Of a DNA stretch of 64,000 nucleotides, positions 4,012-54,774 are shown in pieces. The stretch is from Candidatus Micrarchaeota archaeon (lineage in GTDB: Archaea > Micrarchaeota > Micrarchaeia > Micrarchaeales > CABMGC01). Numbering within the stretch: the first letter of the stretch is position 1; each line of letters begins with the position of its first letter. Location: the NCBI GenBank assembly GCA_027365175.1, contig DAHXNY010000001.1:51052-115051 (forward strand), read 5' to 3'. The translations under genes and the position numbers were made by a program. Below the pieces are notes generated by a model. The model was not told the origin of the DNA, made no database searches, and was given only the letters and a program-made list of their open reading frames with translations.

Positions 4012-5154
4012 ATGATAGTGCAGTTCTTCGGTCTCTTCATAGCAGTCTTTTCGCTCAATCCCGTGCAGACCGCTGTGATTTCAAGCAATACCAGCTCAGC
4101 CCTGAGCAGCCCTTATTTACAGGCAGCTTATGATGTAGTATCGATAGCAGTATTCACAATACTGATACTTGCAATACTACGGCTCTATAAGAACAAGGGT
4201 GCACTGCTCTTCAGGCTCGTCGAATCTTTCGCTGTTGGCTTCGGAACCATAGTTATGTTCTTCTTCATACTTACAACCATTTTCTACAATGTGAATGCCG
4301 TCTATACTGCTGCCGTTGCCGTATTGTTCGGTGCAATAGTGGTTATAGCAAAAAACAGAGTAAAGCATTTGAGGAATTTTGCTGCCCTCACTTCGAGCAT
4401 AGGCCTTGGGATAATAATAGGCAACTACGGCTTCGTTCTTGCATACGCCTTCATGTTCATAATGGCAATGTACGATTACATAGCCGTGTTTGTCACGAAG
4501 CACATGCTGGTCCTTGCGAAAGCTGCGTCTAATGAGAATCTCTCCCTGCTCATAGGCTCTTCCAATGTAGAGGTCGTGCCCAGGGCGCAGGCGGACAAGA
4601 AGATGCTTGCAGAGCTCAGGAATGAGGTTAAGAAGAATCAGATAAAGGATCCTATCATAAAGGAGGTGATAGACTCCGGAGAGATGCCTGTCCTGTCTCA
4701 GATACAGCTTGGTGCCGGCGACCTTACGCTTCCGCTCGTCATGTCGATTGGATTGTTTGTGTCTACAGCTTACTTCTCGGTCCCTGCCGGAAGCACAGCA
4801 ACAATAAACGTATACTACCTGCCTGTTGTTGCTGCTTTGGGGGCAGTTGCAGGGCTTATCTTTACAATGTGGCTCCTGAAAAGGTATTCGGTTGCGCTTC
4901 CTGCAATCCCGCCGCTCTTCGCAGTGATGAACTTTTTCATAGGGTTCGGAATGCTGGCTTACCCGAGGCCTGCAAATTTCCTGATAGGAATAGGCATACA
5001 TCAGGGTTCCCATATTGGCTATTATATGATAGCCGCGGGGATGATAGTCGTCGGCGCAGCCTTCCTGCTCCTCATGATGGTCACACTGGAAAGGAACAGG
5101 AATAGACAGAAGTCTGCTAAGACGTCAAAAGGCAAAACTAGACAAAAGTCTTAA
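4012..5154 (+). CDS. presenilin/signal-peptide-peptidase-like intramembrane aspartyl protease (A22 family homologue)
   Basis: Polytopic membrane protein. It has a YD motif (MAMYDYIAV) and a GxGD motif (LGAGDLTLP) separated by a charged loop, plus a PAL-like ALPAIPP near the C-terminus. Confidence 0.65.
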   Translation: MIVQFFGLFIAVFSLNPVQTAVISSNTSSALSSPYLQAAYDVVSIAVFTILILAILRLYKNKGALLFRLVESFAVGFGTIVMFFFILTTIFYNVNAVYTAAVAVLFGAIVVIAKNRVKHLRNFAALTSSIGLGIIIGNYGFVLAYAFMFIMAMYDYIAVFVTKHMLVLAKAASNENLSLLIGSSNVEVVPRAQADKKMLAELRNEVKKNQIKDPIIKEVIDSGEMPVLSQIQLGAGDLTLPLVMSIGLFVSTAYFSVPAGSTATINVYYLPVVAALGAVAGLIFTMWLLKRYSVALPAIPPLFAVMNFFIGFGMLAYPRPANFLIGIGIHQGSHIGYYMIAAGMIVVGAAFLLLMMVTLERNRNRQKSAKTSKGKTRQKS

Positions 5155-8607: not shown

Positions 8608-8795
8608 AAAATCGTATCTGAATGGAATTATGATGATATAAAAGGCTTTTCTTCTGTATTAGACGAATGCGAAGGATTATTTATATTGAATGCCATAATA
8701 AGTTTTGCCCGTAACTGACCGTGGAAATGTTTGTGGAAAATTCGGATACGTGCTGGCAGTCAAGGAGTATGCCTTAACAGTTGATGGAAGAATGA

Positions 8796-8887
8796 TGGGC
8801 CCGAGGAGATTTGAACTCCTGACCTACGGCTAACTTAGGCTTGCGCCGTATAAGACCGCCGCTCTGACCAGGCTGAGCTACGAGCCC
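8796..8887 (-). tRNA. tRNA-Ile(UAU) with a 17-nt canonical (37/38) intron
   Basis: Hand-folded cloverleaf: acceptor GGGCTCG/CGGGCCC, D arm GCTC..GAGC, T arm AGGAG-TTCAAAT-CTCCT, anticodon loop CT-TAT-A|intron|A. The intron (8832-8848) forms a bulge-helix-bulge with central helix CTTA/TAAG, 3-nt bulges TAC and TTA, and an inner stem GGC-GCAA-GCC. The body is close to typical archaeal tRNA-Ile. No CCA is encoded. Confidence 0.85.
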
Positions 8888-8981
8888 ATGATTTATAGGG
8901 ATTAAGTTGCTTTATTTATATGAGTTTCTGTTTAACGGACTTATTTTATATAGCAGTTAATATAATATTATATGTGATTTT

Positions 8982-10283
8982 ATGGATCTTGGAGAAGGCC
9001 TTAGGAAAGCTATCGCAAAACTCAGCGGAGCTACCATAATAGACGCCAGGACCATACGCGAATTCAACAAGGAGCTTCAGCGCGCACTGATATCTTCAGA
9101 CGTGGAGCTCAACCTGGTGATGGCGCTTACCGGCAAGATAGAGAACGCGGCGCTTAAGGAGAAGCTCCCTGACGGGATAAGCCCTAAGGAGTACATAACC
9201 AACATGGTCTACGAGGAGCTTGTGAACCTCATGGGAAAGGATTACTCTCCTGAGATAAAGCCTAAGCGCATACTGCTCATGGGGATATACGGATCGGGTA
9301 AGACCACAACCACAGGAAAGCTTGCTAAATTCTATCAGGACAGAGGCCTGGGCGCAGGAGTAATATGCTGTGACATATCAAGGCCTGCCGCTTATGAGCA
9401 GCTGGAGAGCGTGGCCAAGCAGGCAGGAGTGGGATTCTACGGGATAAAGGGCGGAAAGGATGTAAAGGAGATTGTTAGCAAAGGATTGGAAGAGCTGAAG
9501 AACAAGAAGGTAATCATATGCGATTCTAGCGGAAGGAGCGGTATGGATGCGGAGATGATAACGGAGCTTAAGGAGATTGATGCCTCATTCAGGCCGGATG
9601 AAAGGTTCCTTGTGATAAATGCAGATATAGGACAGGTTGCAGGAAGGCAGGCGCGCGAGTTCGGCTCTGCCGTCGGAATAAACGGAGTGATAGTTACAAA
9701 GATGGATGGGTCTGGAAGAGGAGGGGGAGCACTCAGCGCTGTGAATGAATCCGGAGCCAAGGTAGCTTTCATAGGCACAGGAGAGAAACTTGCAGACCTG
9801 GAGCTTTATGATTCGAAGAAATTTGTCGGCAGGCTGCTGGGAATGCCTGACATAGAGTCGCTTATTGCAAAGGTAAACGAGGCGGCGAAGAGCGTCGGCG
9901 TGAAGGAGATGACTGATATAAACGAACTTAACTTTGACATGTTCTACCAGCAGTTAAAAGCGATGTCAAAGATGGGGCCCATGAAGAACGTATTGGGAAT
10001 GATGGGCCTTGCGGATGTTCCCAAGGAGATGGTAGAAGGAGGTGAGAGCAAGCTTAAGATTTACGAGTCTATAATAGGGTCTATGACAAAAGCGGAGAGG
10101 AACGATGAGAAATTGGTCAGGAATCCGGATAGGATAAGAAGAATCGCAAAAGGAAGCGGGAGGACGGAAAAGGACGTGAGAGGTTTGCTGAATGACTTCA
10201 ACAGGATGAAGAAGATTGCAGGACTTATGAAGAATGACAGGGCATTCAAGAAAAACTTCTCAAAATTTGCAGGAATGAAATGA
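8982..10283 (+). CDS. srp54: signal recognition particle protein SRP54
   Basis: GTPase motifs GIYGSGKTTT, DSSGR and TKMDG, plus a Met-rich M domain. SD GTGA lies 4 nt upstream of the ATG. Confidence 0.95.
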   Translation: MDLGEGLRKAIAKLSGATIIDARTIREFNKELQRALISSDVELNLVMALTGKIENAALKEKLPDGISPKEYITNMVYEELVNLMGKDYSPEIKPKRILLMGIYGSGKTTTTGKLAKFYQDRGLGAGVICCDISRPAAYEQLESVAKQAGVGFYGIKGGKDVKEIVSKGLEELKNKKVIICDSSGRSGMDAEMITELKEIDASFRPDERFLVINADIGQVAGRQAREFGSAVGINGVIVTKMDGSGRGGGALSAVNESGAKVAFIGTGEKLADLELYDSKKFVGRLLGMPDIESLIAKVNEAAKSVGVKEMTDINELNFDMFYQQLKAMSKMGPMKNVLGMMGLADVPKEMVEGGESKLKIYESIIGSMTKAERNDEKLVRNPDRIRRIAKGSGRTEKDVRGLLNDFNRMKKIAGLMKNDRAFKKNFSKFAGMK

Positions 10284-10348
10284 AAAAAGAAGAAAAGAAA
10301 AGAGATAAAGGATGAAAAAAAGAAAATGAAAAAAACTTCATCCTTAAA

Positions 10349-13546: not shown

Positions 13547-14314
13547 TCAGCCGCTGCTAGAGAGGTTTGCGTTTACCAATATTCTCGGTGTCTGTACAGG
13601 AGACGAGCCGAGGTAGAAGTTTCCTGCACTTATATACGAGTACTTTGAGGATATTGAAGCTTCAAGATCCGAGACTATCCTTACGCTGGCATTCTGGCAT
13701 AGGAGAGGGTATAGGTTAATGCTGCCGTTCAGGTAAGTTGTAAAGTAGTTAGAGGTTATGGATGAGTTGAAGGTGTTGAAATATACTCTTTCGAATATAG
13801 AATTGCCAGATATTACTTCCAGGTAAAGTCCTTTGTTCTGCGCAGAGATTATTTTGAAGTTTAGATAAGGCTCGGTTACCAAGAATGGAGCTGACGTCAG
13901 GTTGCCTTGACCTGATACAAATCCCTGGAATGTCGAGGCTACGAAGGTGTTGTTGTACCCTGACCAAGGGGCCCCGTAGTAGTTGTGCTGCTTGTTCTGA
14001 TAAGTAAGATTGAGAGGTGCATTGCCAAAAGCCTTGCCGGTTACATTCCATCCCAAATAAGTGCCTGTGGAGAAATTGCCATTATAGATAGGTGTCACAG
14101 TAGGTGTTGGTGGAACACAGAACGTATATGCGCTTCTTCTGGTAGTGGTGGATGCTGATGATGTGGGTATTGAAGTTGAAGTTGTAGTCGAAGTAGAGGT
14201 CGTTGGAAGTATGTGTATTGCTGCTTTGCCACCTGTGCTTAAATTTAACAACACTGCTATTATTACAAGTATGACGAGAGCTCCTGCGTATATGGTTATT
14301 TTCTTTGTGTTCAT
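13547..14314 (-). CDS. membrane-anchored secreted protein with Ser/Thr linker and jelly-roll-like domain
   Basis: N-terminal TM anchor, then the linker TTSTSTTTSTSIPTSSASTTT. The domain begins NGNFSTGTYLGWNVTGKAFG, a pattern seen in LamG/CBM-like sandwiches. Many N-x-S/T sequons. Confidence 0.6.
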   Translation of the reverse strand: MNTKKITIYAGALVILVIIAVLLNLSTGGKAAIHILPTTSTSTTTSTSIPTSSASTTTRRSAYTFCVPPTPTVTPIYNGNFSTGTYLGWNVTGKAFGNAPLNLTYQNKQHNYYGAPWSGYNNTFVASTFQGFVSGQGNLTSAPFLVTEPYLNFKIISAQNKGLYLEVISGNSIFERVYFNTFNSSITSNYFTTYLNGSINLYPLLCQNASVRIVSDLEASISSKYSYISAGNFYLGSSPVQTPRILVNANLSSSG

Positions 14315-17398: not shown

Positions 17399-17411
17399 GG
17401 TATTTAAATTA
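17399..17411 (+). promoter_or_regulatory. TATA-box-like element (ggtatttaaatta) upstream of the large surface-protein gene
   Basis: The element centre lies about 26 nt upstream of ATG 17431, consistent with a leaderless or near-leaderless archaeal transcript. Confidence 0.4.
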
Positions 17412-17430: not shown

Positions 17431-20400
17431 ATGTCAAAATCCCATGCGGATAAGGATTCGGCGCGGTCCAAAAAACGTTCGAAGAAGGAGCAGATATCAT
17501 TAGAGTACATGATGATATTTGCATTCGCATTCCTTATAGTTGCGGTTGTTGTGGTCTATCTTTATGTCACAGGAGTGCACAATACCACTTATACTAATTC
17601 ATACTGCTATCTGACACCGGATATGCCCTGCCAGGGAATGTATGTGATAGGCAATTCCGTTTCTCCAACAAATGCAAAGGCATATGTGATATTTACTAAT
17701 GAAAAGGGCATCGGCATAAACGTTAGGCCTGGGTCTTTCTACTTCTACCCTAGTGCAAGCAATACAGTTTATTCTGGGGAGTGCATCCCCTCCAATGTAC
17801 CGCAGGGTGGTGTTGCCGTATGCAATGTTACTGTTAACAACTTGAACGGAGGATTATCTGCAGGAGAGCAGGTGAACCCTAAGTTCAATATCGCATACAG
17901 TGTTTGCAGCAATAATTATTGTAATGGATTGAGTGCAAATGCCCCTGTATTCAATACCACAGGCACAGGCACAACATATGTTGCAACCGGTGCCCCATCG
18001 CTGTATTATGTTACTGTAAAGAGTAGTAGCATAAACGTTACTGTGGATGGAGTGGAGTATGCACCAGGTTCAAAACTGGCAGTGTTTAAAGGGATAAGAT
18101 ACACTCTGTTCGGAGAGGTTCCTGCAGGTTATAATTTTGGTTCATGGACAGGCACAGGTGGAATCATTATTGTCTCTTCTAGTTCACAGACAACTGCGTT
18201 TACAGCTTCTGCAAATGGCACAGTATACGGAAGTAAGACAGCGATAACCTCTTCAACGTCTTCTACTTCTACAACATCGACAACTTCTAGCGTATTGTTT
18301 TATCAATTAAATGAGTATGCCAATCCTTCTGCAGAAGGGACGGTATCTCCGGGCACAGGAAGCTATCCTGCCGGTTCCTCAGTAACAATAAAGGCAACAC
18401 CTGACACAGGGTATCATTTTTTAGATTGGACGTGTTATGGCACGGGATGCTATTCTGGAACAAGCTCTTCTGCGACATTGACTATGGATACGGCTAGTAT
18501 CCAGGAGACGGCTAATTTTGCAATAAACAGTTACACATTTACAGAATCGGCAAATCCGTCTGCAGGAGGAACTGCGACTCCTGGGACCGGGACTTATAAT
18601 TACGGTTCTTCCGTAACACTTGGAGAGACTCCTAACGCAGGATACCATTTTGTTGACTGGACCTGCTCTGGAACCGGATGCTATTCTGGAACAAGCACTT
18701 CGCCAACCATCATAATAGAGGGTGCAATTACAGAGACGGCCAATTTCGCACTGGACTCATATACACTTACTACCGGAGCGAGCCCCTCCGGCAGCGGAAC
18801 AGTTTCCCCATCAAGCGGAAATTATAATTATGGATCGGCTGTAACCATATCTGAAACGCCAGTTGCATCCAACACCTTCACAGGATGGTCGTGCAGCGGG
18901 ACAGGCTGCTATTCAGGGACAGCAACATCAAACACCATAATAATCAAGAGTGATATGACCGAGACCGCAAGCTTCTCTCCTTACCAGCCTTTCACAGAAC
19001 TTGTCAATAACGCAGGTTATGGGACGGTATCTCCGGGATCAAATAGCGTACCTTACGGATCTGTAATAGATATAACCGAGGCTCCCACCACAGGGCACTA
19101 TTTCGTTAGCTGGACAGGAAGCGGGACAGGAAGCTACAGCGGAACTGCAACATCGGCGTATGTCACTGTGAATAACCCAATTACAGAGACGGCCAATTTC
19201 GCCGCGTATACATATGTGGTATCCACAGCAGTAAGCCCGTCAGGTTCAGGAAGCGCAACAGGAGGCGGAACTTATGACTATGGATCATCTGCAAGTTTAT
19301 CTGCTATAGCAAATTCAGGATATGCATTCTCCTCATGGTCATGCACAGGCACATGCCCTAGCGGCACCTCATCTACATCAAATCCATGGACGGTGACTGT
19401 AACAGGCACTGCAACCTATACTGCACAGTTTATAGATACATGTGGTGGTTCTGTATCGTATACAGTTCCTAATGGCATACCTTACACGGTGACAGTGCCT
19501 GCAGGTTGTACAACCGCAACTGTCACGCTCAATGGAGCCGGAGGAGGCGGAGGAGGAGATTCCACATTGATATATGAGACCGAGTCTACTGGAGGAAGCA
19601 CATTTTATTCTTGTGAGCCGTTTAGCACCAAATTTGTGACAGGCAGTGGTATGATAGATGTGCCTGGAGGCAGTGGTGGTAATGGGGCGAGTCTGTCAGG
19701 GAACATCGCAGTATCAGCTGGACAGGCATTATATGTATGGGTTGGTGGCGGAGGAGGCGGAGGATCTTCTGATCCGAATACCCAGCCTGCAAATGCAGCA
19801 GGTGGGGCAGGAGGGACTAATGGAGGAGGAGCAGGAGGAAGCGGCGTTACTGCTACAGAGGTCGCACCGTATGGATATTGCCCTTCAGGCGGAGCCGGAG
19901 GAGGCGGAGGGTTCTCTGCAATAGGAACCTCGACAACATCGGCAGGCTGGCTTGCTGCTGCCGGAGGAGGGGGAGGGGGAGGAGGTGCAGCATATCAAAG
20001 CGATCGGATAAATCCTGAAGGAGGAAGTGGCGGGGCAAGTGGAAATGGTGGAAGCAATGGATATACCACCGTAAGCGGAGAAGGCATTGGAGGAGGAGGC
20101 GCGACACTGTCTTCTGCAGGAAGTGGCGGGGCATACGGAGGTTCCCCAGGTTCATCGCTATCAGGAGGCGCAGGTTATACAGGATTTAATGTGCACACGG
20201 TTTCATGTTCTTCGTTCGCAAGCCAGGTGCCAGTTACAGGAGGAGGTAGCGGGGGTGGCGGAGGAGGCTACTATGGTGGTGGCGGAGGAGGAAGTAATAA
20301 TCAAAATACAAATCCATGCTCTACAGCGTCCGGAGGAGGAGGCGGAGGAGGATCTTCGTGGTGGTCAGGCTCTTTCATAGAGACAGGATATACTGCAAAT

Positions 20401-20514
20401 AGTATTGTAGGAGGAGCTACAGGTTGCTATTATGGAGGAGATTATCCACTTTCATGCGGTACCAGTGGCAATCCGGGCAACGATGGATCGGTTACAATCA
20501 CATGGTCGGGATGA
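17431..20514 (+). CDS. large cell-surface protein: class III (type IV pilin-like) signal peptide, pilin-like head, Ser/Thr linker, 5-6 InlB-B-type repeats, C-terminal glycine-rich (ALK/LTK GRD-like) domain
   Basis: The N-terminus is a basic stretch followed by QISLEYMMIFAFAFLIVAVVVV (DUF361-like QxSxEY plus a hydrophobic helix). Repeats have a 76-aa period and end in ETANFA. The C-terminal pattern is TVPAGCTTATVTLNGAGGGGGG..GQALYVWVGGGGGGG..GGGGGGYYGGGGGG. Confidence 0.85.
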   Translation: MSKSHADKDSARSKKRSKKEQISLEYMMIFAFAFLIVAVVVVYLYVTGVHNTTYTNSYCYLTPDMPCQGMYVIGNSVSPTNAKAYVIFTNEKGIGINVRPGSFYFYPSASNTVYSGECIPSNVPQGGVAVCNVTVNNLNGGLSAGEQVNPKFNIAYSVCSNNYCNGLSANAPVFNTTGTGTTYVATGAPSLYYVTVKSSSINVTVDGVEYAPGSKLAVFKGIRYTLFGEVPAGYNFGSWTGTGGIIIVSSSSQTTAFTASANGTVYGSKTAITSSTSSTSTTSTTSSVLFYQLNEYANPSAEGTVSPGTGSYPAGSSVTIKATPDTGYHFLDWTCYGTGCYSGTSSSATLTMDTASIQETANFAINSYTFTESANPSAGGTATPGTGTYNYGSSVTLGETPNAGYHFVDWTCSGTGCYSGTSTSPTIIIEGAITETANFALDSYTLTTGASPSGSGTVSPSSGNYNYGSAVTISETPVASNTFTGWSCSGTGCYSGTATSNTIIIKSDMTETASFSPYQPFTELVNNAGYGTVSPGSNSVPYGSVIDITEAPTTGHYFVSWTGSGTGSYSGTATSAYVTVNNPITETANFAAYTYVVSTAVSPSGSGSATGGGTYDYGSSASLSAIANSGYAFSSWSCTGTCPSGTSSTSNPWTVTVTGTATYTAQFIDTCGGSVSYTVPNGIPYTVTVPAGCTTATVTLNGAGGGGGGDSTLIYETESTGGSTFYSCEPFSTKFVTGSGMIDVPGGSGGNGASLSGNIAVSAGQALYVWVGGGGGGGSSDPNTQPANAAGGAGGTNGGGAGGSGVTATEVAPYGYCPSGGAGGGGGFSAIGTSTTSAGWLAAAGGGGGGGGAAYQSDRINPEGGSGGASGNGGSNGYTTVSGEGIGGGGATLSSAGSGGAYGGSPGSSLSGGAGYTGFNVHTVSCSSFASQVPVTGGGSGGGGGGYYGGGGGGSNNQNTNPCSTASGGGGGGGSSWWSGSFIETGYTANSIVGGATGCYYGGDYPLSCGTSGNPGNDGSVTITWSG
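18295..19431 (+). repeat. five tandem ~228-bp (76-aa) coding repeats inside the surface-protein gene
   Basis: The aa repeats are anchored by (A/S)NF(A/S) at residues 361, 437, 513 and 588 and AQF at 665. Shared core: ANPSxxGTxxPGTGxYxYGSSVT..TP..GYHFxxWTCxGTGCYSGT. A more degenerate copy precedes the Ser/Thr linker. Confidence 0.85.
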
Positions 20515-20701
20515 CTGGTCTTTGGTTCATGGCCCTTTCTGTTGACATTTACGTCATCAAAAACCACGTGTTGGCATGGCTTCGGACTCGGATTAATATT
20601 GTAGTTCGCATAACGTTAGCAAAGGCATATAAACCTTAGTATTCTATAAATAGCGGAAGTGTCTGTGCTAGTCCCTACTCTTTATCTTTATAGGTGTATG
20701 T

Positions 20702-20934: not shown

Positions 20935-22422
20935 GTGGTTTCTATGGATAGTGAAAGCGTTTTGTTGGAATCTTATTTGGACACTATGCCTCTGATACAG
21001 CACCAGCTGGAGAGCTTTAACAGATTTGTAAGCCAGGGCTTGCAGCGTGTTGTAGACAGGCAGAACGTAGTGCAGCCGAGCGTCGAGGGCTTTTCATTGA
21101 AGCTCGGGAACGTCAGGCTAGACAAGGCCTCCATAATAGAGGCGGACGGATCAAGGAGGCAGGTGATGCCGAATGAGGCCCGTCTGAGAAACCTCACGTA
21201 TTCTGCTCCTATATTCATAGAGGTAGTGCCAGTAATAAGGGGCATTGAGAAGAAAGCCTCTTTCGGAGAGGTCTTCATAGGAGAGCTGCCGATTATGGTA
21301 AGGAGTGATTTGTGTTACATAAAGACAATGTCAAAGCAGCAGCTGGTCGAAGAAGGAGAGGATTCGGATGATCCAGGAGGATATTTCATAATAAAGGGGG
21401 TTGAGCGCGTGCTTATAGGATTGGAGGATATAGCCCCGAACAGGATAATAACGACAAAGGGCAAGGGTGGAGACAAGGTAAACAGCGTTGTCTTCTCTAC
21501 AGCCCCTGGCTTCAGGGCAAGATGCGTCGTTTCAAGGAACCAGAATGGAGTCTACACGGTAGAATTCCCCACTATTTCCAAGAGCATCAATCTGATACTT
21601 CTCCTTAGGGCACTCGGGATGTCTGAAAAGGATCTTCTTAACAATGTATCAGACTCGCTTTCATTCAGGAACGACGTAATGTTGAACCTTGAGGTAAGCG
21701 ACTATAAGGAGATGACTCAGAACGAGGCCATATCGGAATTGGGAAGGATGGCAGCACCAGGGCAGGCTGCGGAATACCAATTATCAAGGGCAGAGACACA
21801 GATAAACAATTATCTCCTGCCACACATAGGAGAGACAGCAGAGGACAAATACAAGAAGGCAGAGTACCTTCTCACCATGGCGAGGAAGGCGACGATGGTC
21901 GGCAACAAACTTGCCAGAGAGGATGACAAGGACCATTATGCAAACAAGCGCGTAAAATTTGCAGGGGAGCTCATGGAGGATCTCTTCACCTATGCGTTCA
22001 GATTCTTTACAAAAGAGGTAAAGTACCAGATAGAGAGGACAAGCGCGCGTGGAAGGAAGCTGAGCATACAGTCGATAATAAACCCTGATACTATAACGGA
22101 GCGCATCTCCTACGCAATGGGAACGGGAACATGGGTTGCAGGCCAGACGGGAATATCCCAGGTTCTTGACCGCACGAACTTCTCAAGCGCTTACACTCAT
22201 CTGAGGAGAGTCAAATCTCCTCTTGCAAAGAAGCATCCGCACTTCAAGGCAAGAGAGGTGCATGGAACGCAGTGGGGCAAGATATGCCCTTCTGAGACCC
22301 CTGAAGGACAGGAAGTAGGGCTTACAAAGTATCTTGCACTAATGTCTAAGGTTACAGTAGGTGCAGAGGAGTCCTCTTTCGAGGACAAATTAGTAGGCCT
22401 TAAGAAAAAGGCAAATGAGTGA
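20935..22422 (+). CDS. rpoB2: RNA polymerase subunit B'' (N-terminal part of the split B subunit)
   Basis: Rpb2 N-terminal (protrusion/lobe/fork) pattern, for example ARLRNLTYSAP and GYFIIKGVERV. It ends 4 nt before the rpoB' ATG. Confidence 0.95.
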   Translation: MVSMDSESVLLESYLDTMPLIQHQLESFNRFVSQGLQRVVDRQNVVQPSVEGFSLKLGNVRLDKASIIEADGSRRQVMPNEARLRNLTYSAPIFIEVVPVIRGIEKKASFGEVFIGELPIMVRSDLCYIKTMSKQQLVEEGEDSDDPGGYFIIKGVERVLIGLEDIAPNRIITTKGKGGDKVNSVVFSTAPGFRARCVVSRNQNGVYTVEFPTISKSINLILLLRALGMSEKDLLNNVSDSLSFRNDVMLNLEVSDYKEMTQNEAISELGRMAAPGQAAEYQLSRAETQINNYLLPHIGETAEDKYKKAEYLLTMARKATMVGNKLAREDDKDHYANKRVKFAGELMEDLFTYAFRFFTKEVKYQIERTSARGRKLSIQSIINPDTITERISYAMGTGTWVAGQTGISQVLDRTNFSSAYTHLRRVKSPLAKKHPHFKAREVHGTQWGKICPSETPEGQEVGLTKYLALMSKVTVGAEESSFEDKLVGLKKKANE

Positions 22423-22426
22423 TATT

Positions 22427-24250
22427 ATGGCAAAGAACGCAATAACTCATGTTTACCTGAACGGAAGAGACATAGGGACCGTAGAGGATCCTCAGAAGTT
22501 CGTCAATGAGATAAGGAGTGCAAGAAGGACGGGAGTGATTTCGGGAGAGATCAACGTTGCACACTATGCAAAGCAGCATTACATCAACATAAACAGCGAC
22601 CGCGGAAGGGTAAGGAAGCCGTATGTAATAATAGAAGGCGGCAGGTCAAAGCTCACAAAGGAGGTAATAGAGAAGCTTAAGAGCAAGGAGATAAATTTCA
22701 ATTATCTGTTCAGGAACGGAATAGTAGAATACTTGGATGCTGAAGAGGAGGAGAATGCGCTCGTCGCCTTCAACGAAAGCGACATAACAGAGAGGCACAC
22801 CCATCTCGAAGTAGACATAGCGTCGATATTCGGATTCACAGTAGCTACTTCCCCTTATGCTGAGCACAACAGCATCGCAAGGCATGCCATGCTTTCAAAC
22901 TTCATAAAGCAGGCGCAGGGATTGTATGCGATTAACTTCAACCAGAGATTCGATTCAAGAAGCTATCTGCTCTTCTATCCGCAGGTTCCTATAGTCAATA
23001 CCGTTCCTTACAGGAAGACCAATATCCAGAAGCACCCTAGCGGCCAGAATTTTGTAGTGGCGCTTTCAACATATTATGGATACAACATGCAGGACGCAGT
23101 AGTCCTGAACAGGGCTGCCGTTGAGAGAGGGGCAGGAAGAAGCCTCTTCTACAAGACATACTCGGATGAAGAGAGAAGGTATCCAGGAGGGCAGAGAGAC
23201 AGACTGAAGGTCCCGCCTCCTACGGCAGAAGGATACATGGGAGAGCACTTCTATTCAAAGCTCAGCGACGACGGAATCATAGAGCCTGAGATGGACGTCC
23301 AGGAAGGGGATGTATTGATAGGCAAGGTATCCCCTCCTAGATTCCTTGAAGAGAGCATGGGACCTAGCGGAATAGAGGAGAAGGTAAGGGATGATTCAAC
23401 AGTACTTAAGACTGGGGAGACAGGGATTGTGGACAGTGTAATGATAACAGAGTCCCCTGGTGCAACCAAGCTAGTAAAAATAAGAGTGCGCGGCCTCAGG
23501 GTCCCTGAGAACGGAGATAAGTTTGCAAGCAGGCACGGACAGAAGGGAGTAACATCTCTGATAGTACCTCCTGAAGATATGCCATTCTCAGAATCAGGCA
23601 TAATACCTGATCTGCTGCTAAATCCACACAGCGTTCCCTCTAGAATGACGTTTGGCCACCTGCTTGAGGAGCTTGCAGGAAAGGCAGGAGCTGTAAGCGG
23701 AAGGACTATAGATGGCACAGCATTTGCGCAGGACGGTGTGGAAAGAATGGCAGAGTATGGCAGGATGCTTGAGGAGAATGGTTTTGACAAGTACGGAGAG
23801 GAGGAGATGTACGACGGCATAACAGGCATGAAGTTCAAGGCCAAGGTCTTCACAGGAGTCGTTTACTACAACAGGCTGTACCACATGGTAAGCAATAAGA
23901 TACAGGTAAGAAGCAGAGGAAAGGTACAGATACTGACGCACCAGCCTACAGAAGGAAAGGCAAGGCAGGGAGCGCTCAGATTCGGAGAGATGGAACGAGA
24001 TACGCTTATAGGGTATGGCGCAAGCCTTTTGCTGAAGGAGAGGCTGCTTGACCAGAGCGACAAGACAACAGTGCTCATATGCAGGCAGTGCGGCAACATC
24101 GGCTATTACGACCATATAAAGAGGGTGAATGTCTGCCCAATAGACAAGGGCTCCGACTTCGTTGACGTGGAGATAAGCTATGCATTCAAGGTATTGCTTG
24201 ACGAGATAAAGTCTCTGCACATAATGCCTAGAATGAAGGTAAATGAGTGA
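22427..24250 (+). CDS. rpoB1: RNA polymerase subunit B' (C-terminal part of the split B subunit)
   Basis: Rpb2 C-terminal pattern: GDKFASRHGQKG, PSRMTFG, RFGEMERD and the Zn ribbon CRQCG..CP. The ORF track start is 22415. ATG 22427 is preferred because it sits behind GAGTGA-N4. Confidence 0.95.
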   Translation: MAKNAITHVYLNGRDIGTVEDPQKFVNEIRSARRTGVISGEINVAHYAKQHYININSDRGRVRKPYVIIEGGRSKLTKEVIEKLKSKEINFNYLFRNGIVEYLDAEEEENALVAFNESDITERHTHLEVDIASIFGFTVATSPYAEHNSIARHAMLSNFIKQAQGLYAINFNQRFDSRSYLLFYPQVPIVNTVPYRKTNIQKHPSGQNFVVALSTYYGYNMQDAVVLNRAAVERGAGRSLFYKTYSDEERRYPGGQRDRLKVPPPTAEGYMGEHFYSKLSDDGIIEPEMDVQEGDVLIGKVSPPRFLEESMGPSGIEEKVRDDSTVLKTGETGIVDSVMITESPGATKLVKIRVRGLRVPENGDKFASRHGQKGVTSLIVPPEDMPFSESGIIPDLLLNPHSVPSRMTFGHLLEELAGKAGAVSGRTIDGTAFAQDGVERMAEYGRMLEENGFDKYGEEEMYDGITGMKFKAKVFTGVVYYNRLYHMVSNKIQVRSRGKVQILTHQPTEGKARQGALRFGEMERDTLIGYGASLLLKERLLDQSDKTTVLICRQCGNIGYYDHIKRVNVCPIDKGSDFVDVEISYAFKVLLDEIKSLHIMPRMKVNE

Positions 24251-27849: not shown

Positions 27850-27908
27850 TCTTTTAAATTGTTTTATCTCTATAATCTGAATAAGTATACAAGAACAAGG
27901 TTTTAACT

Positions 27909-28133
27909 ATGCCGCAGGACAGACCCTTTGATCTACTGAACAAGTCGATAGGACAGCAAGTGATGATAAGGCTGAAGAATGGAACCGACATACGTGGAAA
28001 GGTCGTTTCATTCGATGCACACATGAACATCGTTATAGAGAATGCCGAAGAGGTAGATGATGGAGAACTCAAGGCAAGGTTGAATACCATACTATTAAGA
28101 GGAGGAAACATTCTCTTCATTTCCCCAGTGTAA
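27909..28133 (+). CDS. Sm-like archaeal protein (SmAP/LSm)
   Basis: Sm1/Sm2 pattern: V.IRLKNG.DIRG.VVSFDAHMNIVIENAEE...ILLRGGNILFISP. Confidence 0.9.
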   Translation: MPQDRPFDLLNKSIGQQVMIRLKNGTDIRGKVVSFDAHMNIVIENAEEVDDGELKARLNTILLRGGNILFISPV

Positions 28134-28150
28134 CATGACTTTATCCTTAT

Positions 28151-28252
28151 GGGCTCTTGGCGCAACGGTAGCGCGCCTGCATGGCATGCAGGAGGTTGCG
28201 GGTTCAAATGGCCTTTAGAGTTTCTATGGGCCTGCAAGTCCCGCAGAGTCCA
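28151..28252 (+). tRNA. tRNA-Ala(GGC) with a 30-nt non-canonical intron in the T-loop (59/60)
   Basis: Acceptor GGGCTCT/AGAGTCC with the G3:U70 Ala identity pair. D arm GCGC-AACGGTA-GCGC. Anticodon arm CCTGC-ATGGCAT-GCAGG. T stem GCGGG...CCCGC is interrupted after TTCAAA by 28209-28238. The BHB-like fold has outer helix = T stem, central TTCA/TGCA (one U-C mismatch), bulges AAT and AGT, and inner helix GGCC/GGCC. Confidence 0.85.
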
Positions 28253-28887: not shown

Positions 28888-30195
28888 TTACAGTTCCCTT
28901 AACGCATCTATAGGCTGCATCTTTGATGCGCGCCATGCAGGATATACTCCTGCTATTATGCTTACGAATACAGCTACAAAGAGTGCTTCTGCTATCAGTT
29001 CAGGAGTGAATACAGGCCAGTATGATAGGGAGGAAAGTCCCGAAGATGAACCTCCTGAAGAGGATGAAAATCCTAGTCCTGCACCTCCGCCTCTGCTTGC
29101 TGATGCGCTTCCCGGACGTGGCGCTGTGCTTGCGGTCGCGGTGCTGTTTGATGAAGACAAATGCTGCAAAGCAGATAGGCCATATGATGCTGATGCGCCT
29201 ACTATTATGCCGAGTATTCCGCCTAGAATGCCTATTATCAGCGCCTGCATCATGAATATGAGGAGTATGTGCCTGCTCCTGAAGCCCAGGGATTTCATTA
29301 TACCTATCTCGTGCGTCCTTTCATATACTGCTATCAGCATTACATTCATTATGCCTATTGCAGCTACGAGCAGCGATATCCCTGCAACCACTCCCAGGAA
29401 CAGGCTTATCGCCCCTATTATGCTGGATACCGTCTGAAGTATCTGCTGGGTTGTGGTCACGGTTGCACTGGTTCCGTATATGTTTGTTAGCAGATTTGAC
29501 AGTGGAGTAACGGCAGTTATGTTAGCCGCTTTGAGCAATATGACAGTGTAGCCCTGTTTGTGCAGTATGAGCTGCGCCTCCTGAAGTGAGACCAGCATTG
29601 CAGTATTGATATTGACGATAGAAGTGCTGGACTGCTGCATTATTCCGGTTACAGGCATCGAGTATGAGCCGCCGGATGGCCCTTGCAGTTTTATCGTTAC
29701 CGCCTGCCCTACCTTAACGTTCTGTGTGGCTCCTCCCAGGGAGGATGGAAAGGCTACACCATAACCTATTACAGAAGATGGTGTGGGAGTATCCTGGTAC
29801 ATAGAACCTTGGTACAGTGATGCTACGCCTGGAAGCTCAGTCGCCCCTTCTGCAGATATGCCTATGAAGGTGGCAGAAACATTCTGCCCGTTAGCATATA
29901 CATATGCAGATCCTATTACCAAAGGTATGACGGAGCTGATATTGGGCAGCGATGAAAGGCGGCCAACATCTGCTGCTGAAAATCCTGTTGATTTTGAGCT
30001 GCTCAGTATGATGGTAGTAGGGCCCAGGGAGCTTAAGGAGTTAGATATGCTTGAGCTTATTCCCTGTGTCTGTGATACGAGGGCTATTATCGCAGCTACC
30101 CCTATCATTACCATTACTATAGTCAACGCTGTCCTTACCTTCTTCTCCTTTAGGTCCTTATAGCTAAGCCAGAATATGTCCTTTACGTTCATCAA
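28888..30195 (-). CDS. ABC transporter permease, MacB/FtsX type
   Basis: N-terminal TM helix, a large extracytoplasmic domain and a C-terminal FtsX-like 3-TM bundle (ERTHEIGIMKSLGF). A Ser/Gly-rich insertion precedes the last helix. Confidence 0.85.
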   Translation of the reverse strand: MMNVKDIFWLSYKDLKEKKVRTALTIVMVMIGVAAIIALVSQTQGISSSISNSLSSLGPTTIILSSSKSTGFSAADVGRLSSLPNISSVIPLVIGSAYVYANGQNVSATFIGISAEGATELPGVASLYQGSMYQDTPTPSSVIGYGVAFPSSLGGATQNVKVGQAVTIKLQGPSGGSYSMPVTGIMQQSSTSIVNINTAMLVSLQEAQLILHKQGYTVILLKAANITAVTPLSNLLTNIYGTSATVTTTQQILQTVSSIIGAISLFLGVVAGISLLVAAIGIMNVMLIAVYERTHEIGIMKSLGFRSRHILLIFMMQALIIGILGGILGIIVGASASYGLSALQHLSSSNSTATASTAPRPGSASASRGGGAGLGFSSSSGGSSSGLSSLSYWPVFTPELIAEALFVAVFVSIIAGVYPAWRASKMQPIDALREL

Positions 30196-30206
30196 TCACG
30201 CACTCC

Positions 30207-31481
30207 TTATTTCCTGCTCCTCTTCCTCTCCCGATAATAGAGCCATGCAACAACTACCAGCGCTACGAACAGGATGAGCGCTATAAGACCGCTGCCGCTC
30301 GATTTTGCCTGCCTGGGCTGACCTGATGTCGAGGTGTTCAGAGCTGCCTGGGTTATGTTCACAGACACGTTCATCATGCTGGTCTGGTTCTGCCTTAAGC
30401 CGTTGAGGTAGTTTATCCTTATAGGTATGTTGTAGGTTCCTGGTTTCAAGTTTGAGCTGGAGATTAAAGTAACAGTTACAGGCGATTGCGTATCTGCGCC
30501 TATATCCCCTATATACACGGGGTTTGTCCCGTAAGAGCTGAAGCCCTTAGGCATAAGCACGTATGCGCTTGCTGCAGATGCTCCGGATGTCCCTATGTCA
30601 GTAAGAACAAAGGATATTGAGAATATGCTTCCCTGCGGCACTGTAGAAGGAGAGAGTGTTATTCCTGACGGCAACAGGTTTATGGCGCCTGTTGGTATGA
30701 TAGAGGTGCTGTTTAGCACCTGCTCAAGATCCGATCCTGAATAGAAGGTCGCAGTTATGTTTACAGGGAAGGATTCTATCGAGGCGTTCCTTGAAACGAA
30801 GACGCTTGCGTTTATCTTGGATTCGTTGCCAGGGCCCAGTGCTTTTATGTTGTACTCCTGGCTGCCTACAACCGCTCCGTCTATCGGTGGGAGAGACCAG
30901 TGAACGTTTATGTTTGAGATGCTGGAATTTCCATTATTCTTTAATCTTATGGTTATATTCTGTATTTCACCGGAAGTCAGGGTCTTCGGAGTCATGTTCA
31001 CAGTAAGCTGTGAAGGGCATTGAACAGCTATCAGAGAGAGGTTCCTCACCTCGCTGTCAGAATAGAGCTGCAGGTAGTAATAGGATATTGATACTGGCAC
31101 CGTATTGATCAGCGGTGCGCTCTGATTTACGAATACGTGCAGATATATTGTTGCTGAACCTAGAGAGGGTATGCTCCCTATGTAAGCCGTGCCGTTCCCT
31201 GCTGAAGCAAGGTACCTGGATGAACCAAGGCTAAGCGTCACTCCCTGCATTGCGGTCCCGGTAAGATTCTGTGTGCCTACTCCCAGGTAATTCGTCTTTG
31301 CATTGGTAACAGTTATCGGTATGTTGTTGATCTGGCCTTTGCACAGCAGTATAGGCTGCGACGTTACCTGGAAGTTTGGTGGCAGAGGTATTGGCGATGG
31401 CCCGTTTGTCCCTGCATAGACTATCCCCGTAGAGAGCACTGCAAACAGTGCGAATGTCATCATCACATTTGTCTTGTTCAT
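30207..31481 (-). CDS. secreted CARDB/S-layer-domain-like protein with C-terminal TM anchor
   Basis: Signal peptide [23 protein letters not shown], repeated beta-sandwich-like segments and a C-terminal anchor LIALILFVALVVVAWLYY plus basic tail. I place the start at ATG 31481, giving an ATGA overlap with the ATPase stop, rather than the ORF-track 31538. Confidence 0.75.
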   Translation of the reverse strand: MNKTNVMMTFALFAVLSTGIVYAGTNGPSPIPLPPNFQVTSQPILLCKGQINNIPITVTNAKTNYLGVGTQNLTGTAMQGVTLSLGSSRYLASAGNGTAYIGSIPSLGSATIYLHVFVNQSAPLINTVPVSISYYYLQLYSDSEVRNLSLIAVQCPSQLTVNMTPKTLTSGEIQNITIRLKNNGNSSISNINVHWSLPPIDGAVVGSQEYNIKALGPGNESKINASVFVSRNASIESFPVNITATFYSGSDLEQVLNSTSIIPTGAINLLPSGITLSPSTVPQGSIFSISFVLTDIGTSGASAASAYVLMPKGFSSYGTNPVYIGDIGADTQSPVTVTLISSSNLKPGTYNIPIRINYLNGLRQNQTSMMNVSVNITQAALNTSTSGQPRQAKSSGSGLIALILFVALVVVAWLYYRERKRSRK

Positions 31482-32206
31482 CTTATCACTTTTTCCTTCT
31501 CTAATTTTCCATCTCTTATATAGATGATTTTGTCGCAATAGCTCGTTATCTCGAGATTATGCGTTATCATTATTATAGTCACATTCCTGTCTTTGCATAC
31601 CTTTGCGAGCAGTTTGACCACGTTCTCTCCTGATTTAGTGTCTAGGTCTCCAGTAGGTTCGTCTGCAAGTATTAAAGAGGGATCGTTCACTAGAGCACGT
31701 GCTATTGCCACGCGCTGCTGCTCTCCACCGCTTAGCTTTGAAGGCGGCAGGTGCAACCTCTCTCCCAGTCCAAGGCCATCTAACAGTTCAGCTGATTTCC
31801 TGTATCTTTCTTTCTCAGGAACCTCTGTCGCGTTTGCAAGCAGAGGCAGGAAGACATTCTGCTGTGCAGTCAGCCCGTTTATCAGGTTGAATGCCTGGAA
31901 TACGAAGCCCATGTGCTTGTTCCTGAATACGGCAAGTTGTTCATCGTTCATCTTTGAGATATCTTCACCGTCTATGTATATGGCGCCTGCGGTGGGCCTG
32001 TCAACCGTGCCTATCAGGTTCATCAGTGTCGACTTTCCGCTGCCTGAAGGACCGACTATTGCTGCAAATTCTCCCCTCTTTACGGTAAATGATATCCCGA
32101 GTACTGCCTTTACCTCTACATCACCGCTTATGTAGGTCTTGTGTACATCCTCCACTCTGACAGCGATGTTGCCGGACTTGTTAGTGGATTGTGCCATTCG
32201 GATCAT
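31478..32206 (-). CDS. ABC transporter ATP-binding protein (MacB/LolD-like)
   Basis: Walker [10 protein letters not shown], signature LSGGEQQR and Walker [12 protein letters not shown]. Confidence 0.95.
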
Positions 32207-52862: not shown

Positions 52863-54767
52863 ATGGCTGACGAAACTTACGATGCTTCAAAGATAATTGT
52901 GCTTGAAGGAGCGCAGGGCATACGTAAGAGACCGTCGATGTATATAGGCTCAACAGGACCTTCCGGGATAATACACCTGCTGTACGAAGTTATGGATAAC
53001 GCGGTAGACGAATCCTCTGCAGGATACTGCAAAGACATAAAGATAAAACTGTACAAGCAGGACGGAGCAGACATAGCCGAGATATCTGACGACGGAAGGG
53101 GGATACCTGTAGGGATAATGGAAAAGTACGGAAAGAGCGCTCTCGAGGTCATAATGACAACACTGCACAAAGGGGCTAAATTCGAAAATGATGTTTACAA
53201 GGTATCTGGAGGACTCCATGGGGTGGGGCTTACCGTTGTAAACGCGTTGTCAGAATTCACAGAAGTCACGGTAAAAAGAAACGGTAACATATACAGGCAG
53301 ACCTTCAGCAGGGGGCTGCCAACATCAAAGCTCGAAGTTATAGGGGAGACCAAAGAGACAGGAACAACAGTAAAATTCAAGCCGGACCCGGAGATATTCA
53401 GCGTGAATACATTTGACATAGCGATGCTGAACGAAAGGTCCAGATACATCAGCTACACCAACGTCGGACTGCGTATCATAATAACGGATGAGCGCTTTGG
53501 GGACAAAGTGGAGGAGACCTATTATTCTGAAAACGGAATAATAGATTTTGTAGAGTATATAAACAGGGAAAGGTCTCCTATAACTTCTATAATATACGGC
53601 AAAACCACAGCAGATTCTACTACTGTAGAGTATGCGATGCAGTACACAGAATCATACGATGAAAAGATAGAATCCTTCGTAAACAGCATAAAAATGAATG
53701 AAGGAGGGACGCACCTTTCAGGCTTCCATGCAGCGTTGACAAGGGCAATAACGAATTATATAGACAAGAACAAGTCTCTCAACGCAAAGGCGAAGGTAAC
53801 CGGAGACGATGCAAAGGAAGGCCTTACTGCCATAGTCAGCATAAAGATGCAGAATCCGGAATTCGAGGGCCAGACCAAGGAAAAATTGGGAAACGTGAAG
53901 ATGAAGACCCTCGTAGAGACCTTTGCATACCAGAGCATTTCAAGGTATCTGGAGGAGCACCCTTCCGATGCCAAGTCAATAATAAGGAAGATAACTGAGG
54001 CAGCAAATGCGCGCGACGCTGCAAGGCGCGCACGCGAACTTGAGAGGAAGAAGAGCATATTCTCAAGCGCGGTTCTCCCTGGCAAGCTATCTGACTGCAT
54101 ACTCAGCGACCCTGAAAAGACCGAGCTCTTCATAGTAGAGGGAGAGAGCGCAGGAGGGTCGAGCAAGCAGGGAAGGGACAAGAACATACAGGCAATACTC
54201 CCATTAAGGGGAAAGATACTCAATGTAGAGAAGGCAAGCTACGAAAAGATATTCGATAACAAGGAGATAAAAACCATGATTACTGCCTTTGGCACAGGCA
54301 TAAACGAGACCTTCAATGCCGCAAACATACGCTACAAGAAGATAATAATAATGACCGATGCCGACGTTGACGGAAGCCACATAAGGACACTGCTGCTTAC
54401 GTTCTTTTACAGGTACATGCGCAAGATAATAGAACTCGGATACGTGTATGCTGCACAGCCCCCGCTCTATAGGATCGGGAAGGGCAAGGACGAATACTAC
54501 TGTTATAGCGATGAAGAGCTCAATGAGAAGCGCAAGGAGTACGGGGAGAACGTAGAGATACAGAGATACAAAGGACTCGGAGAGATGAACTACGAGCAGC
54601 TATGGGAAACAACCATGAACCCGAAGAACAGGAAGCTCAAGAAAATATCTATAGAAGACGGCCTTCATGCTGACGAACTCTTCACCATACTCATGGGCGC
54701 TGACGTAGCCAAGAGGAGGAGATATCTGCAGGAGCATGCAAAGGAGGTAAAAACACTTGACATATAG
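52863..54767 (+). CDS. gyrB: DNA gyrase subunit B
   Basis: GHKL ATPase motifs (LYEVMDNAVDE, GGLHGVG), Toprim motifs (EGESAGGS, IMTDADVDGSHI) and QRYKGLGEM. Confidence 0.95.
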   Translation: MADETYDASKIIVLEGAQGIRKRPSMYIGSTGPSGIIHLLYEVMDNAVDESSAGYCKDIKIKLYKQDGADIAEISDDGRGIPVGIMEKYGKSALEVIMTTLHKGAKFENDVYKVSGGLHGVGLTVVNALSEFTEVTVKRNGNIYRQTFSRGLPTSKLEVIGETKETGTTVKFKPDPEIFSVNTFDIAMLNERSRYISYTNVGLRIIITDERFGDKVEETYYSENGIIDFVEYINRERSPITSIIYGKTTADSTTVEYAMQYTESYDEKIESFVNSIKMNEGGTHLSGFHAALTRAITNYIDKNKSLNAKAKVTGDDAKEGLTAIVSIKMQNPEFEGQTKEKLGNVKMKTLVETFAYQSISRYLEEHPSDAKSIIRKITEAANARDAARRARELERKKSIFSSAVLPGKLSDCILSDPEKTELFIVEGESAGGSSKQGRDKNIQAILPLRGKILNVEKASYEKIFDNKEIKTMITAFGTGINETFNAANIRYKKIIIMTDADVDGSHIRTLLLTFFYRYMRKIIELGYVYAAQPPLYRIGKGKDEYYCYSDEELNEKRKEYGENVEIQRYKGLGEMNYEQLWETTMNPKNRKLKKISIEDGLHADELFTILMGADVAKRRRYLQEHAKEVKTLDI

Positions 54768-54774
54768 TGGGAGT

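Follow-up and report, generated by a model that had tools for sequence, protein, structure and literature searches.

The stretch of DNA considered here (hereafter the window) comprises 64,000 nucleotides of contig DAHXNY010000001.1 from a Candidatus Micrarchaeota archaeon (assembly GCA_027365175.1). Between a divergently oriented gene for the tryptophanyl-tRNA synthetase (TrpRS) and the RNA polymerase operon rpoH-B''-B'-A'-A'' it contains a complete gene for a predicted modular surface protein of 1027 amino acids (aa), for which a look-up of the exact protein sequence returned no existing record. An earlier reading, made from the letters alone (the sequence-only reading), had described this protein as a fusion of an archaeal class III signal, InlB-B-type repeats and a glycine-rich domain resembling that of the receptors ALK and LTK, and the translation holds all the motifs which it quoted, each where it had placed them. 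We found that the protein combines a pilin-like signal and head, a Ser/Thr linker, five InlB-B repeats and a C-terminal domain predicted to belong to the ALK/LTK fold class (Table 1), and that the part beyond the linker is a cassette that is absent from the same locus in close relatives.

The C-terminal glycine-rich domain (GRD) spans 358 aa and is 32% Gly. Its Gly-rich segments number 12 and are 5-10 residues long, and the domain includes every string that had been quoted for it. In direct searches its proposed relationship is not apparent. The PF12810 model (cut-off 24.5 bits) gave no match at E<=10 with either the full protein or the isolated C-terminus, direct Pfam and NCBIfam scans returned nothing for the C-terminus, and searches of the PDB sequences by phmmer and with a 4-sequence profile recovered low-complexity noise and no ALK match. 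A word-indexed homologue search with the GRD yielded 3 matches only, as poly-Gly words saturate its prefilter. The close homologues P0001-3 have the same GRD, and one of them, P0002, obtains a sub-threshold PF12810 score of 17.9 bits that covers profile positions 27-241 of 243. The missing direct PF12810 and PDB sequence matches, along with very large HMMER bias corrections, are what one would expect if the C-terminal third were a disordered low-complexity Gly/Ser tail with a compositional likeness to ALK. However, in an exhaustive HMMER search of 1.84 billion representative sequences with the 4-sequence GRD profile (A1) we recovered 27 significant matches. Of these, 21 are long, and 12 among the long ones belong to PF12810 above the curated cut-off, with coinciding coordinates (best 2.3e-43). 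Reversed or column-shuffled profiles, which have an identical composition, gave nothing or <=5 bits on the same proteins, as against 36-95 bits in the forward direction; the signal of the GRD is therefore order-dependent and not compositional.

The alignment further revealed that the canonical blocks of the domain are collinear, namely VPxG, GAxGG, VTPGETLYV.VGG, NGGG.GG, GGGGG.S.I, VAGGGGGG, GGGGAT.SAGG.GG, GGGGGGGYYGGGGGG, GGGGGGSS and VTITW, to which a further conserved block, GYYGGGGG, can be added that is likewise collinear with the PF12810 proteins; this collinearity extends to blocks of residues other than Gly and so also speaks against a purely compositional likeness. A profile of the query with its relatives (A4) matched ALK (7LRZ, 7MZY, 7NWZ, 7N00, 7MZW, 7NX3 and 7LS0, E 1e-8 to 3e-7) and LTK (7NX0, E 3e-6) over positions 12-297 of 304. 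These are its top eight PDB matches, though the step from A4 to ALK/LTK is a transitive one given that A4 includes PF12810 members. The domain thus shows an order-dependent profile homology to bona fide PF12810 members as well as to ALK/LTK. We also noted that this GRD and that of the protein P0129 (see below) are both missed by the PF12810 model although they are homologous by profile and by fold, and an archaeal GRD subfamily probably escapes routine annotation.

An AlphaFold2 (AF2) model computed from the 4-sequence alignment was unusable, with a predicted local distance difference test (pLDDT) score of 36, and this poor first model is a further point that would fit a disordered tail. In contrast, the model from a 70-sequence alignment is confident (pLDDT 83.1, predicted TM-score (pTM) 0.85) and displays 11 beta-strands, with the Gly runs left unassigned by DSSP. 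Foldseek searches of the PDB with this model gave 23 matches at E<=1e-3, all of them either to the TG domain of human and invertebrate ALK/LTK, which provide the top matches, or to the tail tip of mycobacteriophage Bxb1 (9D93, chains Qa/Qb; E=1.5e-5 for chain Q, which we take to be gp33 from its description in the literature). The next match was the fibre of the cyanophage Pam3 (E ~0.1). While the probability of the 23 matches is 1.0, the TM-scores are 0.34-0.46, and our claim is therefore one of the same fold class and not of close superposition. BFVD yielded 99 significant matches, among them structural proteins of phage virions, tail fibres and minor tail proteins, at TM-scores up to 0.5-0.6. 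At the level of the fold, the predicted model hence combines a TNF-like beta-sandwich with a glycine-rich bundle, and its 12 Gly-rich segments compare with 14 polyglycine II (pGII) helices in ALK, with the caveat that the segments, like the Gly runs left unassigned by DSSP, are only proxies for polyproline II (PPII) geometry. The confident model thus places the GRD in the ALK/LTK fold class, shared with phage tail tips, and the ALK/LTK likeness of the sequence-only reading stands through transitive profiles and structure despite the silent PF12810 model. As the domain also evolves with a ratio of non-synonymous to synonymous divergence (omega) of ~0.09, pointing to purifying selection, we regard the compositional explanation as largely refuted and its probability as minimal.

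Comparison with the TG supradomain of ALK/LTK (PF12810; 7LRZ, 7N00, 7NWZ, 7NX0/1) shows shared collinear blocks and the same predicted beta-sandwich with Gly-rich segments. Unlike the receptors, the query has lineage-specific Cys-containing insertions at GRD positions ~41-76 and 322-347, inside which positions 53-68, 328-333 and 341-343 are modelled with pLDDT <50, and it is a prokaryotic protein without a kinase, an EGF module or a cytokine ligand. According to the literature, bundles of glycine-rich PPII helices occur in ALK/LTK and, among phages, in the S16 gp38 adhesin, in the Pam3 fibre and in the 'brush' domains of Bxb1 gp33, and the polyglycine brush domains of phages are viewed there as antireceptors. 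These phage domains (Bxb1 gp33 in 9D93, the Pam3 fibre 7YFW and S16 gp38) are of the same fold class by Foldseek and are likewise distal on elongated host-contacting proteins with a fast and modular evolution, but they belong to virions, whereas the present domain is carried by a pilin-type anchor of an archaeon.

At the other end of the protein, the leader contains 7 Lys/Arg and places Lys19 at position -2 and Glu20 at position -1 of the putative cleavage site. It is followed by QISLEY, with Gln at +1 and Glu at +5, and by the hydrophobic run MMIFAFAFLIVAVVVVYLYV, which forms a predicted helix of ~20 residues. The PF04021 model (Class_IIIsignal, the former DUF361, to which the signal had been assigned) scores this region at 14.5 bits in the full protein and at 16.7 bits in the N-terminal 290 aa, under its gathering cut-off of 23.7 bits. 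A search with a profile of the signal and head, however, recovered 185 homologues. Most of them are small proteins of 140-330 aa encoded by Micr-, Woese-, Nano- and Parvarchaeota or by Marsarchaeota; one homologue is labelled UPF0333 while another, the close homologue P0012, has a precomputed PF04021 match. The pattern [KR]-x/Q-[AS]-A-[ML]-E-[FY] (the slash standing between -1 and +1), followed by a hydrophobic helix, is seen in 122 of 123 family sequences. Position -2 is K/R in 116 of the 122, and position -1 is Gly in 38, Ala in 32, Ser in 30, Leu in 11 and Glu in 8 (n=122; G/A/S together account for 100). Furthermore, a profile built from 107 distant members matches residues 18-46 over its full length (E=4e-4), and among 501 stop-to-stop open reading frames (ORFs) of the window this is its sole significant match (next best 2.7). 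Given the family-wide pattern and the specificity of the distant-member profile for this ORF, we consider the class III signature to be real at the level of sequence. Canonical Gly occupies position -1 in the syntenic orthologues P0010, P0011 (KKGQASLEY) and P0012, and the sequence-only reading was right both about the type of signal and in its caveat that the query has Glu in place of Gly/Ala.

Glu at -1 is confined to 8 close Micrarchaeota relatives from two head subfamilies (P0001, P0002, P0005, P0006, P0008, P0009, P0013 and P0015), and Leu is found there in 11 other DPANN family members. The recurrence of these residues hints at either a peptidase of unusual specificity or uncleaved anchors. 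FlaFind recognizes cleavage sites by G/A at -1, and as Glu falls outside this rule the prepilin peptidase may fail to cut the protein. The main, if less probable, alternative explanation of the entire architecture is accordingly that Glu blocks the peptidase and leaves an uncleaved signal-anchor in the cytoplasmic membrane, the product being a type II membrane protein whose stalk and GRD would extend outwards across the envelope and which would act as a surface adhesin unrelated to pili. The retention of Glu across 8 relatives and two head subfamilies suggests that it is functional and not a lesion, the gene is situated outside a pilus locus, and the linker with five repeats would be long enough as a spacer from the membrane. 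These points have to be set against the retention of the rest of the pilin signature (Lys -2, Gln +1, Glu +5 and the helix), the Gly of the syntenic orthologues, and the occurrence of Ser or Leu at -1 in 41 of 122 family members, which suggests a permissive peptidase.

The head (residues 47-190) matches no Pfam family. Its six Cys are residues 59, 67, 118, 131, 159 and 164, the first five of which (C59, C67, C118, C131 and C159) are invariant in the head alignment, and all 5 N-x-S/T sequons of the whole protein lie inside residues 51-264. Next to the head is a beta-rich region that is retained in the short alleles described below, and then the linker, in which the Ser/Thr run is uninterrupted. 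The repeats are matched directly by PF18998 (Flg_new_2, divergent InlB B-repeat) at 164.6 bits against a cut-off of 23.6 (E=5e-49), whereas TIGR02543 remains slightly under its cut-off (20.0 versus 20.95). With a hidden Markov model (HMM) of our own, built from the obvious copies, we delineated five tandem copies of ~75 aa, with independent E-values (i-E) from 4e-43 to 8e-12, and a CxxxxC pair is present in four of the five. "Five or six" repeats had been proposed; five are confirmed, but a sixth at ~190-270 was rejected since residues 185-290, scanned alone, gave no PF18998 match, and we see only the GYNFGSWTGTGG relic in this region. In bacterial surface proteins with InlB-B repeats (PF18998/TIGR02543), whose repeat type the five copies match far above threshold, the repeats likewise seem to be a spacer or stalk between an anchor and a distal domain, and one such protein (P0196) also joins PF18998 with a GRD. 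The present protein differs from them in being archaeal and in the CxxxxC pairs of its repeats.

Table 1. Coordinates of the gene, its modules and the associated elements in the window
Feature	Position	Strand	Basis
TATA-like element ATTTAAAT, ~25 nucleotides 5' of the ATG	17402..17409	+	read from sequence
Complete gene for the 1027-aa modular pilin-like protein	17431..20514	+	ORF listing and translation
Basic leader, residues 1-20 (...SKKRSKKE), up to the putative prepilin-peptidase site (Lys -2, Glu -1)	17431..17490	+	translation and family comparison
Putative mature N-terminus Q21-I-S-L-E25-Y and hydrophobic helix, residues 21-46, class III/type IV pilin-like signature	17491..17568	+	sub-threshold PF04021, distant-relative profile
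Globular head, residues 47-190, six Cys, three N-glycosylation sequons, homologous to small DPANN pilin-like heads	17569..18000	+	alignment and family search
Beta-rich region, residues 191-270, GYNFGSWTGTGG relic, no more than a degenerate InlB-B-like copy	18001..18240	+	weak partial matches to repeat HMM
Ser/Thr linker, residues 273-287, where the cassette has its 5' recombination/deletion boundary	18247..18291	+	translation; L004 homology stops at 18290
Passenger cassette, 2.3 kb, repeats, GRD and 3' flank, absent from short alleles of sister lineages	18291..20590	+	blastn of L004 against the window
InlB-B repeat 1, residues 291-366, CxxxxC pair 335/340	18301..18528	+	PF18998 and own HMM
InlB-B repeat 2, residues 368-442, Cys 412/417	18532..18756	+	own HMM
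InlB-B repeat 3, residues 444-518, Cys 488/493	18760..18984	+	own HMM
InlB-B repeat 4, residues 519-593, no Cys pair	18985..19209	+	own HMM
InlB-B repeat 5, residues 596-667, more divergent, Cys 638/642	19216..19431	+	own HMM, i-E 8e-12
ALK/LTK-type TNF-like and glycine-rich domain (GRD), residues 670-1027	19438..20511	+	profile searches and structure model

A scan of the GTDB species genomes with the GRD profile detected two loci, both in metagenome-assembled genomes of Ca. Micrarchaeota, in agreement with the proposal that the protein belongs to an ultrasmall host-associated archaeon. The locus L002 holds the syntenic orthologue; the contig end truncates this gene, and on its 3' side lies the same RNA polymerase operon. 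L001 and L003 contain tandem paralogues with the signal, head, Ser/Thr linker and GRD but without the repeats (L001:1-963 and 1043-2770; L003:7791-9221 and 10001-10297). These arrays include a second GRD subtype that ends in GEVIISWN, as opposed to the VTITWSG type of the query, and judging by their sequences they comprise a small, diversifying family of paralogues. A similar combination of modules is seen in P0129 (890 aa), which has the signal and head followed by a Big_1 (Ig) domain, two InlB-B repeats and the GRD, and shares with the query the junction YTANF/CGGSVSYT. P0001-3 consist of the signal, head and GRD, and other heads of the family are fused to Big_1 or LamG adhesion-type domains. 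In bacteria the GRD is associated with Ig, cadherin, DUF11, IPT and LamG domains in surface proteins, and once with PF18998. The fusion had been called unusual: it is rare but not unique, given the similar P0129 and P0001-3, and is part of a modular system. In the literature searched we found no published account of an archaeal pilin-type head with InlB-B repeats and a GRD, nor a link between Micrarchaeota pilins and PF12810. The modules singly, and the concept of a pilin with grafted modules, were already known.

In a sister lineage the syntenic gene encodes a protein of 289 aa that includes the signal, head, relic domain and linker and then stops (P0011; L004, L006 and L007). DNA homology between L004 and the window stops at 18290, within the Ser/Thr linker, and restarts at 20591, indicating that a 2.3-kb cassette is absent from L004. 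Alleles of this type were seen on >=24 contigs, which makes an assembly artefact unlikely. L008, the closest head relative (91% identity), also has a stop at codon 289 and is without window positions 18341-20358, but keeps both ends of the cassette, namely the first part of repeat 1, which is out of frame, and the last ~50 residues of the GRD, which are encoded within a 68-aa ORF. Although this is a single contig, an artefact is unlikely here too as the endpoints fall in repeat 1 and the GRD, and not between repeats, and the stop is a separate change. From the remnants in L008 and the clean absence in L004-type alleles it follows that the long form is ancestral and that the repeats and tip have been lost at least twice independently in close relatives. 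In L005, a 7.3-kb island (L005:10855-18216) lies between a short pilin-like gene and rpoH, at the site of window positions 18291-20590, and encodes Vsr, a DNA cytosine methylase, a DDE transposase with a SWIM domain and a GmrSD/HNH protein. The site just 3' of the linker looks like a hotspot of integration or variation.

We compared the window with L002, which represents a different species with RNA polymerase genes that are ~90% identical in nucleotide sequence. The RNA polymerase subunits are 97-99% identical in aa (non-synonymous divergence, dN, 0.007-0.017; synonymous divergence, dS, 0.60-0.65; omega 0.01-0.03), the InlB-B repeats 88-89% (dN 0.074, dS 0.75, omega 0.10) and the GRD 76.5% (dN 0.168, dS about 2.0, omega 0.09), the values for the GRD being subject to the saturation of Gly codons and to the ambiguous alignment of low-complexity regions. 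The non-synonymous divergence of the GRD is thus 10-24 times that of the neighbouring RNA polymerase genes. Pervasive diversifying selection is unsupported, with an omega of 0.09-0.16 in all modules, and relaxed constraint together with probable recombination describes the fast divergence better; the threefold synonymous excess of the GRD over its flanks suggests recombinational replacement of this domain.

The behavior of the cassette also bears on whether the protein could be a structural component of the envelope or biofilm matrix, S-layer-associated or matrix-forming, with no specific host ligand. Micrarchaeota do have several large, strain-specific surface proteins (PMC5498576), the window itself encodes further surface proteins with CARDB and NPCBM_assoc domains, and glycine-rich PPII bundles can serve structure alone. 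Nevertheless, a core envelope component would hardly be expected to lose its passenger while keeping its head, as happened in close relatives, and the relatives of the GRD are distal on phage fibres and bacterial adhesin-like proteins. We therefore view a purely structural role as unlikely. We noted two such additional surface proteins in the window, predicted at 30207-31538 (-) and 59950-61587 (-), with adhesion domains of the NPCBM_assoc/CARDB type and many N-x-S/T sequons. A MacB/FtsX-type permease gene, 28888-30195 (-), adjoins the former.

Sulfolobus sugar-binding proteins use a class III signal, and the present protein could by analogy be a bindosome-type solute- or substrate-binding protein for nutrient capture. 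In archaea, surface proteins other than pilins do use class III signals (PMC4858521). However, Pfam and NCBIfam scans of the 1027-aa protein revealed no solute-binding-protein domain, the nearest ABC-type component is the above-mentioned permease ~8 kb downstream, past the RNA polymerase operon, and the architecture is that of a stalk with a distal domain, all of which renders this a very improbable alternative.

Taken together, we favor a modular type IV pilin-like surface protein in which a stalk presents a distal binding end of the ALK/LTK fold, a reading to which we assign a probability of roughly 0.6. The basic leader and hydrophobic helix would act as a class III (prepilin-type) signal that sends the protein to the membrane, where a peptidase of the FlaK/PibD type may cut before Gln21. 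After this step the helix would anchor the product, which would reside in the membrane or else, as a minor or tip pilin, at the end of a type IV pilus. The disulfide-bonded and probably glycosylated head would correspond to the globular domain of pilins, and the Ser/Thr linker and five repeats to an extended stalk offering the TNF-like/polyglycine domain as a ligand-binding end, with attachment to a host cell or a biofilm matrix as the likely use. Stalk and tip together make up a dispensable cassette that has repeatedly been lost, and the tip has probably been exchanged by recombination. The same design principle is known from bacteria: PilB and PilC of Streptococcus sanguinis and CofB of enterotoxigenic Escherichia coli (ETEC) are type IV pilins with grafted C-terminal vWA or lectin modules, and such a bulky module fits only at the filament tip or surface. 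The window protein, known from its sequence alone, differs from these in belonging to another domain of life and in a passenger of InlB-B repeats and GRD.

Among archaea, it shares with class III/type IV pilin-like proteins (PF04021, UPF0333) the basic leader, K/R at -2, Gln at +1, Glu at +5, the helix and a Cys-containing head, and is set apart by Glu at -1, its sub-threshold PF04021 score, a location outside a pilus locus and a 740-aa passenger attached through the Ser/Thr linker. Large proteins with class III signals have been proposed as tip adhesins or minor pilins (Makarova, Koonin & Albers 2016, PMC4858521), an idea that fits the present protein as a predicted pilus-associated adhesin. 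For the micrarchaeote Mia14, Golyshina et al. (PMC5498576) report a pair of type IV pilus systems along with a single FlaK-like peptidase, which many Micrarchaea share.

Several of the observations made above weigh against this interpretation, namely Glu at -1 with the possible failure of cleavage, the PF04021 score under its cut-off, the lack of a direct PF12810 match, the modest TM-scores and the unsupported diversifying selection. To these must be added that the surroundings of the gene, between TrpRS and the RNA polymerase operon, are housekeeping genes and not a pilus locus. Scans of 10 window ORFs revealed neither a prepilin peptidase nor a pilus ATPase, and none of the other predicted proteins of the window looks like one; at the paralogue loci L001, L003 and L009 we saw no pilus genes either. 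Close relatives manage without the passenger, which is thus not essential, and we know of no ligand for any prokaryotic GRD. A candidate at 4012-5154 (+) was rejected as a prepilin (A24) peptidase because it matches the presenilin/SPP-type family PF06550 (E=5e-13). The 380-aa product of this ORF crosses the membrane several times, has YD and GAGD motifs and is a GxGD aspartyl protease.

Upstream of the gene, the TATA-like element ATTTAAAT is a possible archaeal promoter, from which a leaderless or short-leader transcript might start. In the adjacent operon the RNA polymerase B subunit is split into B'' and B' genes, within 20935-24250, in agreement with Pfam domains precomputed on relatives. 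Elsewhere in the window, we recognized gyrase B and A genes by eye at 52863-57198. The 255-aa product of the gene at 13547-14314 (-), which has no Pfam family, carries an N-terminal transmembrane helix ahead of a linker rich in Ser/Thr; the syntenic position in relatives also has a 255-aa gene call (L004 6089-6856), a likeness by position and length only. A 95-nucleotide tRNA-Ile gene with the anticodon TAT was predicted by ARAGORN at 8794-8888 (-), its length suggesting an intron, and an isoleucine tRNA with UAU is uncommon among archaea. The antisense ORF 27854-28237 (-) is spurious since it overlaps the tRNA-Ala(GGC) gene at 28151-28224 (+), and in the same region, just 3' of rpoA'', relatives have a gene call for an LSM protein.

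The means by which DPANN archaea recognize and attach to their hosts are largely unknown and the candidates mostly hypothetical, and this gene provides a concrete and testable one, which joins a pilin-type anchor and a stalk to a fold used by phages for host recognition and by vertebrates in a cytokine receptor. Co-cultures of Micrarchaeota with Thermoplasmatales exist. Close relatives offer a natural comparison set, since their alleles of this locus may be long, truncated or deleted, and the history of the ALK/LTK glycine-rich domain gains an archaeal, pilin-linked context. A bolder extension, which we advance tentatively and hold to be rather unlikely, is that the GRD does for the archaeon what an antireceptor does for a phage, as a tip module on a pilin anchor that binds host membranes or glycans and thereby decides which of the wall-less Thermoplasmatales a micrarchaeote can attach to, with loss, gain and recombinational replacement of the cassette tuning the host range and with Glu at -1 reflecting either a lineage-specific change of peptidase specificity or a switch to membrane anchoring. 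If this were true, the host range of these archaea would be tuned by cassette turnover much as that of phages is by their tail fibres.

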